This document shows, piece after piece, positions 24,801-35,042 of a stretch of 64,000 nucleotides of DNA. The translations under genes were made by a program, and so were the position numbers. The DNA comes from Nitrososphaeria archaeon (GTDB lineage: Archaea; Thermoproteota; Nitrososphaeria; Geothermarchaeales; JDFR-13): positions 768,001 to 832,000 of the forward strand of contig JALWXN010000004.1 of the NCBI GenBank assembly GCA_027078545.1. Direction: 5' to 3'. How positions within the stretch are numbered: the stretch's first letter is position 1; every line of letters starts with the position of its first letter. The notes beneath the pieces were generated by a model, which was given only the letters and a program-made list of their open reading frames with translations, was not told where the DNA came from and searched no databases.

Positions 24801-25094
24801 CAGACTAGGAAGGGTTGAAAGGGTCATCAATGAACTCTCGAACAACGCCGAGATAACTATGTTAAAACCAGACTAGGAAGGGTTGAAAGGCTCCTCGCAT
24901 CAGCGTACCATGTCGCATCACAGATCCTGTTAAAACCAGACTAGGAAGGGTTGAAAGTTACATACTCTATGATGTCTGGTAGGAAGATGAATGCTAGGTT
25001 AAAACCAGACTAGGAAGGGTTGAAAGCAAGCTCAGAGGCTACACGGGATACGAGGCGGGATGTGAGTTAGAACCAGACTGGGAAGGGTTGTTTG
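21868..25094 (+). CRISPR. CRISPR array: repeat GTTAAAACCAGACTAGGAAGGGTTGAAAG (29 bp), 46 perfect repeats plus 1 degenerate terminal repeat, 46 spacers of 37-47 bp
   Basis: Counted directly; 3' GAAAG end typical of archaeal type I/III repeats; terminal repeat GTTAGAACCAGACTGGGAAGGGTTGTTTG at 25066-25094. Confidence 0.99.
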
Positions 25095-25181
25095 TTGGAT
25101 CTTGATTGTTGTTTGGCTTGGGTGTATTTTTTATTTTTGTTGGTGGGTTTACCTTTTGGTAGTATATTGGGGGTGACCGTT

Positions 25182-25403
25182 TTGGGCTACGTTACTGTGT
25201 CCGCCAAGATCCCTAGGGAGTTGAAGAGGTTGTTAGAGAGGTATGGTATACGTCCCGGCCCTGTTATCCGTGAGGCTTTGGAGGAGGCTGTCCGGAGGAG
25301 GATGGCTGAGGAGCTTGAGAGCCGTGCAAGGAGGCTTGCCGGTAAGGCTGGGGCTGGGGATGAGGATGTAGCTAGGTATATCAGGGAGGATAGGGAGAGG
25401 TGA
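25182..25403 (+). CDS. vapB: VapB-type antitoxin (RHH/CcdA-like)
   Basis: YVTVSAKIP.ELK..L..YGI....VIREALEEAV and C-terminal IREDRER; overlaps the PIN gene; TTG start after GGGGTGA. Confidence 0.78.
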   Translation: MGYVTVSAKIPRELKRLLERYGIRPGPVIREALEEAVRRRMAEELESRARRLAGKAGAGDEDVARYIREDRER

Positions 25404-25810
25404 GTGGATACCTCTTCGACACCAGCTCCATAATAAACATCCTCCTGAGGGGGCGTGTAAAGCCCCTCGTGAACGGCTATACACTCGACCTGGCACGGTA
25501 CGAAGCGCTCAACACTGTGTGGAAGATGGTTAGGAGGAGGGAGGGCTTAACACCAGGGGAGGCGGGTGAACTCGTCTCCATACTTGTCGAGCTCCTAAGC
25601 AACATAATGAGGATCATATCGATAACTGGTCATGAGGAGAGGGTCTACCAACTAGCATTGGATGAGGGTCTAACCGTCTACGACGCGGCATACCTATACA
25701 TGGCTATGGAGAAGGGCTTAACACTAGTCACGGACGACGAGAAACTGCTCCAGAAGGCTGAGAAGCATGTAGAGACGATGACCACGAAGATATACCTTGG
25801 CGAAGAATAG
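25400..25810 (+). CDS. vapC: PIN-domain toxin VapC
   Basis: YLFDTSSI, YEALN..WK, LTVYDAAY and LVTDD motifs. Confidence 0.88.
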   Translation: MSGYLFDTSSIINILLRGRVKPLVNGYTLDLARYEALNTVWKMVRRREGLTPGEAGELVSILVELLSNIMRIISITGHEERVYQLALDEGLTVYDAAYLYMAMEKGLTLVTDDEKLLQKAEKHVETMTTKIYLGEE

Positions 25811-29244: not shown

Positions 29245-29344
29245 GACACTCTATATAAGGGTCACACCGAGGAAATAACCGTGTTATAAGTAATATTATC
29301 AATGACATATTGCCCAATAAGTATTGTTAAGAGGTGTCACACAG

Positions 29345-29506
29345 ATGGATGTCGAGATCCTTAAGGTAGGTGTTCGGGGCGAGATCTACCTGAAGAAGAG
29401 TCTGAGGGAGGAGCTGGGGATAGAGCCTGGGGAGTATGTCAAGGCCTATGTGGAGGACGGGAGGCTTATCATAGTCCCCCTTAAAGAGATCTTGAAGCCC
29501 CTCTAG
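29345..29506 (+). CDS. AbrB/MazE/SpoVT-family DNA-binding protein (short, possibly truncated)
   Basis: KVG.RGEI.L.K.LREELGIEPG..V.....DGRLII.P motif. Confidence 0.75.
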   Translation: MDVEILKVGVRGEIYLKKSLREELGIEPGEYVKAYVEDGRLIIVPLKEILKPL

Positions 29507-29880
29507 CCCATTGCCCGGCTGAAGATAACGTGTATCACCATCGAGGATATCCATAGCGTGGGTATCAGTATAATGAGTAGGGAGGTGGCTAGGCTTAGCC
29601 CCCTACCAACCATGTCCTGGGCCAGGTAGTATATCAGCGTTACAGCCACGGGTATAAATGTGGATACGGCTAGGCATAGGAGGAGCGTCCTAGGCCTCTC
29701 ACTGGCCATCCCGAGTAGGAAGCCTATGAAGACGGTGGCCATAACCAGTGGGACCGGGCCGAAGAAGAAGTACATCGCCAGTATGACTATGCTCCCCACC
29801 AGTGAGAGGGCTAGTGGCAGGGAGCTGTCCAAACCCCTCCTCACCTCCGCCGAGACTCCCTCATAAACTTCTTTGTCCAC
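29503..29880 (-). CDS. Hypothetical 4-TM membrane protein
   Basis: Hydrophobic ORF with host-like codon usage. Confidence 0.5.
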   Translation of the reverse strand: MDKEVYEGVSAEVRRGLDSSLPLALSLVGSIVILAMYFFFGPVPLVMATVFIGFLLGMASERPRTLLLCLAVSTFIPVAVTLIYYLAQDMVGRGLSLATSLLIILIPTLWISSMVIHVIFSRAMG

Positions 29881-30071
29881 TTACCCCTTAGGCTGGGGGT
29901 TATCTTCACATCCCTAGCTATATCCCTCTCAACCCTGACCATTGCGACGCCCGCCTCCTCATCGACCTCCCACACCAGTATATCCCCGACCTCGATCCCC
30001 AGCGCATGCCTAACCTCGGAGGGGACTACAGTGGCCCCATTGCCGTAGACCCTGCTCCACGACTCGGCCAT
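29841..30071 (-). CDS. AbrB/MazE/SpoVT-family DNA-binding protein
   Basis: SRV..NG.TVVP.EVR.ALGIEVGD.LVW motif. Confidence 0.75.
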   Translation of the reverse strand: MAESWSRVYGNGATVVPSEVRHALGIEVGDILVWEVDEEAGVAMVRVERDIARDVKITPSLRGKWTKKFMRESRRR

Positions 30072-30150
30072 GTATAACGAGATTATACCGCCGCTGTAAT
30101 AAAGACCTCTCGATGTACCTCCCATGCCTACACGGGGGTTACAGGCCCAA

Positions 30151-30173
30151 TATTTTCATTAGGGGGTTCTGAA
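30151..30173 (+). repeat. Dispersed intergenic motif, copy C (TATTTTCATTAGGGGGTTCTGAA), just upstream of the serine recombinase
   Basis: Matches copies A and B. Confidence 0.55.
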
Positions 30174-30191
30174 TTCTAGGTGGGGAGGCCG

Positions 30192-30920
30192 ATGAAGGCG
30201 GTGGTATACAGCAGGGTATCCACCGAGGAGCAGACACCCGAGTCCCAGCTACAGGTGGTCCTCGACTATGCCAGGAACAGGGGCTACGAGATAGTCAAGA
30301 TATTCGAGGAGAACATCTCTGGGAGTGTCGACCCCCTGGAGAGGCCCGTCTTCAAACAGGTCCTAAGCTACCTCCGTGAGCATGAGGTGGATCTCCTACT
30401 CCTCCACGACATGACCCGTTTCTACAGGCCTCCCCCCGGCCAGGCGTCGAGGGCGCTCAGCATTATGAGGCGTATAATGGATGAGTATAACGTGTTGATC
30501 GAGTTCGTCAGCGAACCTCAGATCGATGATCCTATGCTCTCGGAGCTGTGGCGCTTCCTGAAGAGCTGGATCTCCGCCTATGAGAGGCTCCAGATAAGTC
30601 TACGTACACGCTACGGCCTCCTAAGGGTTAAGAGGGAGGGCCGGCTATACCATAAGCCAGACATAGTTTACTACTACGCCGCATGGATATTCAACAAGGA
30701 TTTGAAGGATGTTTCGAGGACGGAGTATGAGGTTGCTAAGAGGCAGCTGACCGAGATAGTCTCGAAGTACTGGCGGGACTCGGCACTAAAGAAGACGAGG
30801 ATCGGTGAGCTCCTGAGGAAGAATGAGCTTAACGGGCTATACTTGAGGTTTCCACACGCCCCTAAGAGCTACCTAACGTTCTACAGGCTGGTTATGGATA
30901 AAAAGGCTGTGGGTAGCTAG
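30192..30920 (+). CDS. Serine recombinase (resolvase/invertase family)
   Basis: AVVYSRVST..Q catalytic motif; ISG....ER, D.TRFYR and ER..IS.RT..GL motifs. Confidence 0.9.
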   Translation: MKAVVYSRVSTEEQTPESQLQVVLDYARNRGYEIVKIFEENISGSVDPLERPVFKQVLSYLREHEVDLLLLHDMTRFYRPPPGQASRALSIMRRIMDEYNVLIEFVSEPQIDDPMLSELWRFLKSWISAYERLQISLRTRYGLLRVKREGRLYHKPDIVYYYAAWIFNKDLKDVSRTEYEVAKRQLTEIVSKYWRDSALKKTRIGELLRKNELNGLYLRFPHAPKSYLTFYRLVMDKKAVGS

Positions 30921-31971: not shown

Positions 31972-31982
31972 GCTTAAATATA
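31972..31982 (+). promoter_or_regulatory. TATA box of the DUF2589-like operon (likely leaderless transcript)
   Basis: GCTTAAATATA about 25 nt upstream of the ATG at 32005. Confidence 0.5.
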
Positions 31983-32004: not shown

Positions 32005-32592
32005 ATGAGCTTCAACCTCGGTAATGAGTTGGCATCCCTCCCGATCGACGTCCTGATCGCGAGGCCACTCGACGCAGCGGTGAGGGCCCAGGCATTCGCA
32101 GCGGAGACCACTGTACGCTTCGTGAAGGAGGTCGGCCTAGATGATAACGGGAATGTAAGGATGACCACTATGAGGTTTAGCTACACCTATGTTACCGACG
32201 AGGGTGAAGAGGAGGAGGTTGAGAGGGAGATATCCGTCCCGTTCCTCACGATGGTCCCAATACCCTTCATCAGGATCAGCGAGGTGGATATTGACCTCAG
32301 CTTCAGGATAAGGAATATCGTGGTTGACAGTAAAGAGAAGTCACTATCCGTCTCAGCCGGCGCAGAGGCCAACTGGAAGGTCTTCAAAGTATCGGTTAAC
32401 GCATCATACTCCTCAAAGAGGACTACCAAGAGCAAGATAGACAGGAGCGCCGAGGTCGATATAAGGGTGAAGGCTGTCCAGGACGAGATGCCGGAGGGGC
32501 TGAGGATACTGCTCAACATACTCAACGAGGGTCTACGTGCACAGGAGGTTGGAGCACCTGCTGGCCAAGGAGGAGGTGGCCAGACAGAGTAG
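32005..32592 (+). CDS. DUF2589-family protein
   Basis: LP...LI..PL.AAV.AQ...A..T..F...VG, I.VP.L..VPIP...I....I...F and V.A.Q...PEGL..LL..L pattern. Confidence 0.75.
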   Translation: MSFNLGNELASLPIDVLIARPLDAAVRAQAFAAETTVRFVKEVGLDDNGNVRMTTMRFSYTYVTDEGEEEEVEREISVPFLTMVPIPFIRISEVDIDLSFRIRNIVVDSKEKSLSVSAGAEANWKVFKVSVNASYSSKRTTKSKIDRSAEVDIRVKAVQDEMPEGLRILLNILNEGLRAQEVGAPAGQGGGGQTE

Positions 32593-32604
32593 GTGTAGAG
32601 AAAA

Positions 32605-33072
32605 GTGGTCCGGGCAGGTGATATGGCCCAGCTCCTAGCAGGGATACTCAGAGCCGTCGTGGAGGCGGATACACAGGCCCGTGAAGCCTTCCTAGAGGAG
32701 CTGGGTAGATACTTCACGGAGACGGAGGAGGGGTTGGAACCGATATACCTGACCCTCAGATACTCCACACAATACGTCGACGACGAGGGACGTCTACAGA
32801 GGAGGAGGGAGAAGGTTGAGATCCCCCTACTGACACTGGTCAACCCCTCCCACATAGGTGTTGAGAAGGCGGAGATCGAGCTATACATGGACGTCGTGAC
32901 CACTAGGGAGGAGCAGGGGGTCCAGAGGCTCTTCACAGTCTTCAGAGCAGCGACAAAGACCAGGTCTGAGAGTGGGATGAGGATTAGGGTCTTGATGACT
33001 AGGAGCGAGGTAGGCGAGGGCCTGGCCAACGTCATATCCACACTCGTCAATAAGGGGGTTGTTGTTGAGTGA
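32605..33072 (+). CDS. DUF2589-family protein (second, shorter paralog)
   Basis: LL.GI..AV..A.......L..YF, V.IPL.TLV.P........I and EGL..VI pattern. Confidence 0.7.
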   Translation: MVRAGDMAQLLAGILRAVVEADTQAREAFLEELGRYFTETEEGLEPIYLTLRYSTQYVDDEGRLQRRREKVEIPLLTLVNPSHIGVEKAEIELYMDVVTTREEQGVQRLFTVFRAATKTRSESGMRIRVLMTRSEVGEGLANVISTLVNKGVVVE

Positions 33073-33497
33073 GCGGTCCAAAGATACCTAAGAAGCCGGA
33101 GAAGCCGATCAAGCCCTCAAAACCCTCCAAGGACCTGCCCAAGGAGGTTAAGGAGATTGATATCAGGGATGTAGAGGTCAGCGGTGCCGAGCCTAAGGGC
33201 GCTCCACAGTCTACCCCCGAACGTATAGAGGGTATAGACAAGATTGTCAGGAGCATTGCACAGGCACTCAACACAGCCAGGCTTGAGGCCACGAAGACGG
33301 CTACAAAGAAAGTCATTGAGGTGGGTAAGGAAAGGGTTGAGATACAGTCCTTCCTAGACCTTGAGGAGGCCGAGGTGGAGATAGAGATCGGTGTGGAGCA
33401 GCGTGGAGACGTGCTCATGGCCAAGATGGCACCTATGACGGAGGGGCCTAGGGCGAGGCTACGGATGGTGTTTAGGCTTAGGGAGGAGGAGGTCTAG
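33069..33497 (+). CDS. Hypothetical protein: Pro/Lys-rich N-tail plus DUF2589/Trypco2-like helix-hairpin core
   Basis: GTGA overlap with the previous gene; I..IV.SIA.AL..A helix followed by L.LEE.EVEI.I strand. Confidence 0.55.
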   Translation: MSGPKIPKKPEKPIKPSKPSKDLPKEVKEIDIRDVEVSGAEPKGAPQSTPERIEGIDKIVRSIAQALNTARLEATKTATKKVIEVGKERVEIQSFLDLEEAEVEIEIGVEQRGDVLMAKMAPMTEGPRARLRMVFRLREEEV

Positions 33498-33500
33498 GGG

Positions 33501-35042
33501 CTAGGGCTCCTGGATCCTCACCTCGTCAAAGATTAGGGTGCCGCCCTGGAGCGTAAATATTCCGTATAGCCTACCCCTATAGTTGATGAGGAATGACGGG
33601 TTTACCCTCCCAGCCCAGTTCACACGTACCTGTATAGGCTCACTATCGGGTGATACCCTGTACATCTTGATGCCACCAGATACGACTCCACCAGACTCGG
33701 CCCTCTCTATCCATAGGATGTAGAGCCTGTCGCCGACCTCGTAGAAGCTGTACCCTCCGTAATAGGTGGTTACCGGTATGAAGAGGGCGAGGGCTGAGCC
33801 AGTGCCGCCCCAGCCATTCCTCCTCCAAAGCTCCTCACCATCCCTATAGGCCGCTATAAAGGCTTCAGAGACGTAGTATACACCGTCACGGTAGATGGAG
33901 GTTACGTAGCCTACGCTAGCGTTGTCCTCCGTCCTGGTGTACATCCCCTCTATGCTCCATACCTTGGTTAGAGACGTTAGGTCCCACTTCTCGACCTGGT
34001 AGTCCCTCCTATTAAACAGCTCAGTATTAGTCTCGTTGGCCTCGACGAGGAAGTCGTATGAGTAGTAAACATATAGATCATTCCCATCCAGATATGCCGT
34101 TGCATAGGCCAGCCTAAGAGGTGCTGATACGAGCTTGGTTGGCCAGCCCTCAATCATGAATTCGAATGTGTTTAGATCTATCTCCACATACATGATGTAG
34201 ATGTCTCCCCTCCCCTGCTCGGTAACGCTGGACATCACTATGACCGCCCTAACCATATCCTCGCCACGCTCGACATACGCCAACTTCTTAGGATCATTTG
34301 GCCTGAGGCTGTAGAAGAAGTCGGAAGCATCTTGATAAGCCTCGAAGACTACTGAGCCCGTCTCGAGTCCATATACACGTAGGATGATATTCATCTTCTC
34401 ATAGTCGATGTCTAGGGTGAGGTATTTATCGCCGTAGAAGCCTAGGCCTAGACCCCTGATATCCTCTATGGTGTTACGCATAACGACGCCCCTACCGGGC
34501 TCGACAATATAGTAGTAGAGATCGATCTCTCCAAACTCGATGAAGATGAAGGGGAAGGGTAGTGGAAGTGGGAATGGTATTAAAGCCCTCTCCCTAGCGA
34601 CGCCTCCAAACACGTATCGGTTGGAGTAGACCGAGACGAGCTGACCACTTATGGGGTCGGACTCACCCGAGGGAACCTCGAAGATCTTCTCTACAGAGAG
34701 GATCTCACCACTGGAGAGGGACATTGTTATGATATAGTGATCCTTCCGGAGTAGCTGGGTATTATTTTCATCCATGATGGATTTGACGCCATATATGTAG
34801 AGCCTATCCCCATCGCTGAGGATACTTAGTATAGAAGTCAGGTTGAAGGTGAGGGGGCCCTCCTGAACAGCCTCATCACCAGGCTCTCCCCCCTCCTCCC
34901 CCTGAGCCGGGGCTTCTCCACCGTCTCCACCATCACCGCTGAATATACTCCCTATTATGACCAGCCCAAGGAGGAGTATGATGACAATCAGAATGGCTAC
35001 AACTATCTTTCCCACGCCACCCTCCCGCCCAGTCATTTTCAT
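33501..35042 (-). CDS. Membrane-anchored extracellular protein, beta-propeller-like
   Basis: N-terminal TM helix, Gly/Glu linker, repeated beta-strand units (..GD.LY.., G...W). Confidence 0.55.
   Translation of the reverse strand: MKMTGREGGVGKIVVAILIVIILLLGLVIIGSIFSGDGGDGGEAPAQGEEGGEPGDEAVQEGPLTFNLTSILSILSDGDRLYIYGVKSIMDENNTQLLRKDHYIITMSLSSGEILSVEKIFEVPSGESDPISGQLVSVYSNRYVFGGVARERALIPFPLPLPFPFIFIEFGEIDLYYYIVEPGRGVVMRNTIEDIRGLGLGFYGDKYLTLDIDYEKMNIILRVYGLETGSVVFEAYQDASDFFYSLRPNDPKKLAYVERGEDMVRAVIVMSSVTEQGRGDIYIMYVEIDLNTFEFMIEGWPTKLVSAPLRLAYATAYLDGNDLYVYYSYDFLVEANETNTELFNRRDYQVEKWDLTSLTKVWSIEGMYTRTEDNASVGYVTSIYRDGVYYVSEAFIAAYRDGEELWRRNGWGGTGSALALFIPVTTYYGGYSFYEVGDRLYILWIERAESGGVVSGGIKMYRVSPDSEPIQVRVNWAGRVNPSFLINYRGRLYGIFTLQGGTLIFDEVRIQEP

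Follow-up and report, generated by a model that had tools for sequence, protein, structure and literature searches.

A three-gene DUF2589 cassette of an archaeon carries a pore-like β-hairpin in one subunit and is a candidate regulated membrane pore

The window, that is, the whole stretch of 64,000 nucleotides from a Nitrososphaeria archaeon that was analyzed, contains an operon of three small co-oriented genes (Table 1), which together encode fewer than 500 residues. It is divergent from the gene for ornithine carbamoyltransferase (OTC) and convergent with that of a 513-aa membrane-anchored protein, and its GC content equals that of the surroundings. The spacing given in the preliminary description, a 12-bp gap between genes 1 and 2 and a 4-bp overlap between genes 2 and 3, agrees with the ORF coordinates; gene 2 starts with GTG, an alternative ATG being located at 32623. 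The TATA box proposed to belong to the operon is present as well; its spacing is identical in the related loci L003, L105, and L107, and a TATA-like element with the same spacing was found in a relative with diverged flanks. The transcript of gene 1 is probably leaderless. Compared with L003, synonymous changes outnumbered amino-acid changes in gene 1 (48 vs 20 codons), gene 2 (35 vs 6), and gene 3 (33 vs 14). Compared with the more distant L105, this was again true for gene 1 (53 vs 33) and gene 2 (57 vs 26); for gene 3 (62% identity), amino-acid changes outnumbered synonymous ones (53 vs 38). Thus, a conserved TATA box and mostly synonymous divergence establish the three genes as a real operon. 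The closest named relative, a Candidatus Geothermarchaeota bin, is 92% identical and has the same gene order. A 287-aa antisense ORF overlapping genes 1 and 2 (32187-33050, minus strand) was rejected as a gene; similar shadows run over 78 loci, and it is probably a by-product of codon use.

Table 1. Features of the operon and its surroundings (window positions; residues refer to gene 1).
Feature	Position	Strand	Remarks and evidence
CRISPR array, 47 repeats	21867 to ~25070		29-nt core, spacing about 70; ends about 7 kb 5′ of the operon
PIN gene	25092-25810		CRISPR array is followed by a probable antitoxin ORF (weak RHH match) and this gene
Two AbrB/MazE-type genes, small membrane protein, serine resolvase	29324-30920		Resolvase overlaps OTC end
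Archaeal TATA box TTAAATATA	31974-31982	+	22 nt 5′ of gene 1 ATG
Gene 1 (subunit A, DUF2589)	32005-32592	+	195 aa; Pfam PF11655, AF2 model
Gene 1 elements			Helix 14-44, hairpin 53-79, long hairpin 90-158, helix 164-179, Gly/Gln-rich tail; AF2 model
Gene 1 long β-hairpin, residues 90-158	32272-32478	+	Column profile, 88 homologues; weak covariation
Putative membrane-spanning tip, residues 114-137	32344-32415	+	Column profile, hairpin score
Gene 2 (subunit C, DUF2589 paralogue)	32605-33072	+	155 aa; Pfam and alignment with archaeal C proteins
Gene 3 (probably diverged subunit B)	33069-33497	+	142 aa; position as Archaeoglobi B, hhalign, collinear alignment
513-aa protein gene	33501-35042	-	N-terminal membrane anchor, β-rich body, no Pfam family

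Genes 1 and 2, which had been suspected to belong to the DUF2589 family (PF11655), matched it with E-values of 1.6e-30 (106.9 bits) and 4.4e-12 (47 bits), respectively, both above the gathering cut-off of 23 bits. All sequence motifs quoted earlier for the three proteins were found. Hydrophobic moments of 0.33 (gene 1), 0.42 (gene 2), and 0.57 (gene 3) were calculated for the N-terminal helices. As the highest 19-residue Kyte-Doolittle means are only 1.41, 1.32, and 0.32, respectively, none of the proteins contains a transmembrane helix; on inspection, none shows an evident signal peptide either, as had been noted earlier. The operon matched none of the PADLOC system HMMs (2023 library). In 8.4 million papers, DUF2589 is mentioned twice, in passing, and a pore reading was not found in the literature searched; examples of the family are BF9343_2744 of Bacteroides fragilis (PMC11402942) and the DUF2589-related AF0414-AF0417 of Archaeoglobus fulgidus, which are up-regulated on lactate (PMC3949148). 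The DUF2589 cassette is widespread but unstudied.

The composition of the cassette was derived from 80 related GTDB loci, a sample in which close relatives of gene 1 are overrepresented, by clustering the neighbors. Subunit A (about 195 aa; gene 1 in the window) is joined by a second protein, B, in 71 of these loci; eight of the nine loci missing B stop at a contig edge, and in the remaining one, the window's close relative, gene 3 takes the place of B. As third member, 47 loci have a helical protein, and 27 non-redundant cases a second DUF2589 protein (C; gene 2 in the window). The family, which the preliminary description took to occur usually as bacterial gene pairs, forms triads. Their order in bacteria is mostly A-B-helical or A-B-C. 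The order A-C-B was found in 10 archaeal GTDB loci (nine Archaeoglobi and one unassigned archaeon) and three metagenome contigs; these archaeal cassettes have no helical partner, and archaeal B proteins are shorter (130-157 aa) than those of most bacterial cassettes (225-275 aa).

Within the sampled rows, triads come from about 19 phyla. In the phylum of the window, 2 of 301 genomes yielded the family, as did 2 of 31 close relatives, both being samples that include incomplete genomes. At least three related assemblies have the cassette at the same position. Genome G360, which is unpublished, underlies none of the conclusions. In a tree of A proteins, the bacterial phyla are scattered and the archaeal proteins cluster; as this archaeal grouping is weakly supported and on long branches, no donor is claimed. 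Two viral proteins in BFVD matched the gene 1 model (A0A516MP19, E 6e-11; A0A516L4Y6, E 4e-3) and a human-gut phage record (MT839761.1) encodes a homologue of A, so some viruses carry the family; scans of IMG/VR gave zero confirmed relatives.

Several loci depart from, or extend, this arrangement. Another genome of the same phylum (G162) has a bacterial-type A-B-helical cassette (L124:5821-7791), which was probably acquired independently. In a member of the Hydrothermarchaeota (L057:7230-9719), the genes are arranged C-A-B, a helix-hairpin-helix domain (DUF4332) is fused to C, and a fourth gene of 218 aa is present; the fusion hints at nucleic-acid sensing by C. Seven mostly alphaproteobacterial A-B-C loci (L036, L052, L056, L058, L060, L063, and L071) are followed by a small zinc-ribbon protein; a 325-365-aa protein of no Pfam family also follows in six. 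Five actinobacterial, planctomycete, and acidobacterial loci (L017, L018, L023, L031, and L054) share a conserved gene of ~150 aa directly 5′ of A.

The assignment of gene 3 depends on remote similarity. Its product starts with the disordered Pro/Lys tail that had been described (57% Pro+Lys in the first 28 residues), followed by a helix and a short hairpin. It has no match in Pfam, NCBIfam, PADLOC, or PHROG, was unmatched by hmmsearch with subunit B, and its relatives in large homologue searches were near-identical copies and one more. Against archaeal B, hhalign returned an E-value of 0.002, a probability of 13.5%, and a score of 24.7 (shuffle maximum, 17.4). Gene 3 also aligns collinearly with Archaeoglobi B proteins at 15-24% identity, and resembles them in position, size, and the charged Lys/Pro N-tail. 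It is probably the diverged third member of the cassette, beyond detection by HMMs. Its tie to DUF2589 is an indirect chain from gene 3 via archaeal B and bacterial B to A: the profiles of A and C match with 99.9% probability, those of archaeal and bacterial B with 98%, and that of bacterial B in turn reaches 67-69% (E 5e-5) with A and with C. This linkage of archaeal to bacterial B, and of the latter to A and C, makes it probable that the three subunits are paralogues. The profile chain and the collinear alignment also favor the relationship among the three proteins that had been suspected from the window, so that genes 1-3 are probably of common ancestry, the gene 3 step being the weakest link. 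Were gene 3 merely an unrelated neighbor, a profile probability of only 13.5% would be no surprise; however, B accompanies A wherever the contig extends far enough, and its slot is the one that gene 3 occupies.

The surroundings of the cassette were surveyed through 58 downstream and 45 upstream co-oriented genes and their top 25 Pfam families. Nothing was conserved beyond the triad, and no conserved protease, lysin, or defense gene emerged. The commonest family was papain-like C1 (4 of 58 downstream genes); a caspase was found once among the 45 upstream neighbors. The papain-like C1 peptidase, the only recurring protease neighbor, adjoins the triad in five Chitinophagaceae loci (L068, L069, L073, L077, and L080; about 2.1 kb 3′ of A) and in L020 and L047. 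The idea that the system is gated by proteolysis was not sustained, as a protease is absent from the operon and none is conserved beside related loci.

In archaea, the genes beside the cassette are AFOR, an AIR-synthase-like gene, TldD/PmbA, FEN1, TFB, L10e, and other housekeeping genes of this kind. The accessory zone postulated around the operon does exist insofar as resolvase, AbrB/MazE, PIN, and CRISPR are encoded there (Table 1), and the gene set between 29324 and 30920 is kept in L003, L105, and L107; but these features are local to the lineage, and as the other archaeal copies sit among housekeeping genes, a CRISPR/toxin-antitoxin context is unsupported. The 513-aa protein diverges faster than the proteins around it (78% and 62% identity to relatives, compared with more than 90% for most flanking enzymes), and distant homologues occur in two genomes of the same genus in which the cassette was not found. 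A functional linkage to this convergent propeller gene was rejected, since the two are linked only in this lineage, and so was one to OTC, which has other neighbors in relatives G308 and G312, neither with a cassette match.

Housekeeping flanks, together with the substrate-dependent expression in A. fulgidus (PMC3949148), would suit an everyday function in physiology or stress, such as membrane remodeling or a scaffold, with no link to conflict. However, the flanking genes vary among lineages and thus connect the cassette to no pathway, and the family was not found in 299 of the 301 phylum genomes searched. That either such a role or an unrelated gene 3 accounts for the operon is quite improbable.

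The feature that sets subunit A apart is its long hairpin, which was analyzed with an AF2 model and a column profile built from 88 sequences. The core of the model consists of helix 14-44, hairpin 53-79, and the paired strands 90-105 and 144-158; pLDDT is 76-92 over residues 21-100 and below 50 over residues 104-147, which would be expected of a pore element modeled in a monomer. According to the column profile, the base of the hairpin (residues 94-102 and 149-157) is hydrophobic and alternating, the stem mostly polar (about 8-10 residues per strand), and the tip again alternating over residues 114-124 and 127-137. Within 116-124 and 129-135, the outer face of the tip is 67-100% hydrophobic across the 88 homologues and rich in small residues (Ala, Val), whereas the inner face is only 0-5% hydrophobic and rich in Lys and Ser. 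Position 124, at the turn (W124 in gene 1), is aromatic in 99% of the homologues, and position 135 (Y135) in 73%. Base and tip share a common register (i+j about 251), at which a weak covariation peak (i+j 249-251) is, with an Neff of 49, a hint at most. The length of the hairpin is fixed, with 72-84 residues between conserved anchors in 82 A proteins.

A hairpin score of at least 9 of 11 was reached by 84% of A proteins, 0% of C, and 0% of B. Among 568 host ORFs the fraction was 0.7%, with a single top score, which matches gene 1's own; as the pattern was derived from A and the score is therefore partly circular, only the contrast with C, B, and the host ORFs is informative. This agrees with the preliminary description, in which gene 1 carries a long alternating hairpin that genes 2 and 3 lack, and with gene 1 as the candidate inserting subunit, being the only one with a membrane-type amphipathic hairpin. 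A polar stem bearing a transmembrane hairpin with an aromatic girdle is the layout of β-pore formers, and by this analogy the gene 1 hairpin resembles in shape the segment with which pore-forming proteins span the membrane.

Alternating hairpins also form soluble tubes, which counts against a pore, and polymers typically have paralogue sets with one major subunit. The cassette could encode a polymer, soluble or at the surface (a tube, filament, or cage), likened to tail-tube or gas-vesicle-type polymers, in which the hydrophobic face packs on neighbors, B and C are terminators or adaptors, and no pore is formed. The Ala and Val on that face and the match of the gene 1 model to viral A0A516MP19 point in this direction. 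Yet the amphipathic segment, which is roughly 12 residues long and placed on a polar stem, is aromatic at each end, as suits a membrane girdle, none of genes 1-3 matches a PHROG family, and the loci surveyed are not flanked by virion or contractile-system genes; we regard such a polymer as rather unlikely. If, on the other hand, the barrel is in the membrane, it might be a non-lethal or holin-like conduit releasing signal-less cargo such as lysins, toxins, or nucleic acid. The hairpin anatomy would be identical, a Lys-rich lumen face would be in keeping, signal-less enzymes (papain-like C1) occasionally adjoin bacterial copies, and A is carried by the gut phage record and the viral model. Because no lysin family is among the top 25 listed for the 58 downstream and 45 upstream neighbors, the operon of the window lacks a fourth gene, and the convergent propeller gene shows no linkage elsewhere, we consider cargo release plainly unlikely.

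A possible model for a regulated membrane pore is Pepco (Trypco1/2), a small helix-plus-hairpin protein that forms 9-10-mer β-barrel pores and kills after proteolytic trimming of its C-tail (Evans et al., bioRxiv 10.1101/2025.11.14.688446). Its hallmark is a barrel of 9-11 subunits that resists denaturation and is activated by cleavage at the C-terminus. Its families are Trypco1 (PF19493) and Trypco2 (PF19631; Pfam cut-off, 24.2 bits). In profile comparisons, Trypco2 scored 27.1 against bacterial B (E 6e-4; shuffle maximum near 17) and 22.7 against archaeal B (E 0.004; above shuffled and reversed controls), both higher than the Trypco1-Trypco2 control (17.7). Against subunit A, neither Trypco2 (E 0.14) nor Trypco1 rose above shuffles. 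In Pfam, gene 1 reached 12.1 bits with Trypco2 (E 0.25), below the cut-off, and genes 2 and 3 were unmatched. The gene 1 hairpin is the whole genome's only Trypco2 match at E ≤ 1 (0.22), but 5 of 14 control genomes give a match at this level too. An Atlas cluster with 19% Trypco2 (score < 0.9, low recognition) is no more than a lead, and a profile search of the PDB did not find a Pepco structure. As the scores are below the cut-off and a protease is missing, the proteins are not assigned to Pepco; a remote relationship of the cassette is plausible. Of the tie to Trypco2 proposed earlier, the remote link via B thus stands, whereas gene 3 itself is not a Trypco2 member (no Pfam match; profile score 16.4, E 0.05).

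Because gene 1 has a conserved pore-type hairpin that its two partners lack, the three genes are read as probably building a regulated membrane pore, for which we infer the oligomer, its insertion, the roles of B and C, and the biological purpose as follows. Three cytoplasmic paralogues of one helix-plus-β-hairpin superfamily would be synthesized, and many copies of A would join edge to edge, their 69-residue hairpins forming a β-barrel whose base packs on the helices and whose polar stem extends outward from the base. The two roughly 12-residue amphipathic tip strands would cross the membrane from the cytoplasm and line the lumen with Lys and Ser. B and C would keep the polymerizing core without the tip, act as caps, inhibitors, or nucleators, and control the insertion of A by occupying strand edges, in place of Pepco's licensing protease. 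The most likely use would be that of a conflict or cell-death pore. A complex prediction with genes 1, 2, and 3, including alignments, gave scores of 0.40, 0.07, and 0.25 (mark, 0.32), to which we attach no weight in either direction.

We lean toward a membrane barrel of one use or another, be it conflict pore or release conduit; for a Pepco-like three-subunit membrane β-barrel without linked protease that serves specifically as a conflict or death pore, the chances appear to fall somewhat short of even. In its favor are the patchy distribution (2 of 301 and 2 of 31 genomes) and the scattered phyla on the tree, as for mobile conflict genes. Against it are the lack of an adjacent protease or sensor and of a PADLOC match, the housekeeping flanks, the stable single site per lineage, and the substrate response of A. 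fulgidus AF0414-AF0417, which hints at routine expression (PMC3949148). A more far-reaching proposal, which we hold to be possible yet doubtful, is that DUF2589 triads constitute an undescribed, protease-free class of three-component β-barrel pores of bacteria and archaea, in which A would provide stem and hairpin and the partners switch and cap, the archaeal A-C-B cassette being the minimal thermostable form and inserting into ether-lipid membranes.

The window contributes a minimal archaeal A-C-B cassette that comes without regulator, cargo, or protease, a probable place in it for the otherwise orphan gene 3, and figures showing that the membrane-type hairpin is confined to A. If the cassette forms a pore, it would add a self-regulating multi-subunit branch to the Pepco-type β-barrel effectors and be a rare β-pore candidate for archaeal membranes. 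The minimal, presumably thermostable three-gene version is convenient to express and solve, and cultured A. fulgidus, with its DUF2589-related region, is a native test case.

Among known systems, holin-endolysin pairs and type 10 secretion differ in that genes 1-3 encode no transmembrane helix, and a cell-wall hydrolase is neither part of the operon nor a conserved neighbor of the sampled loci. With gasdermin, MACPF, and aerolysin, subunit A shares an amphipathic β-hairpin on a polar stem that is disordered in the monomer model, and hairpin-less partners recall multi-component pores; however, the DUF2589 protein is much smaller, it lacks a receptor-binding domain, a signal peptide, and a cleavage partner, and neither a sequence nor a fold match to these proteins was found. 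To DUF2589 (PF11655) itself, genes 1 and 2 belong as members, whereas gene 3 has diverged beyond HMM detection. Pepco is one gene, whereas the cassette comprises three paralogues without linked protease or sensor, and in subunit A, hairpin 53-79 and a C-terminal helix are additional and the main hairpin is much longer. Like Pepco, the cassette proteins would be cytoplasmic, with an amphipathic N-terminal helix, an E-x-E-L-type strand, an aromatic-tip hairpin, and a return strand; in gene 1, the combination of amphipathic N-terminal helix and amphipathic β-hairpin that characterizes Pepco is found at the level of sequence and model.
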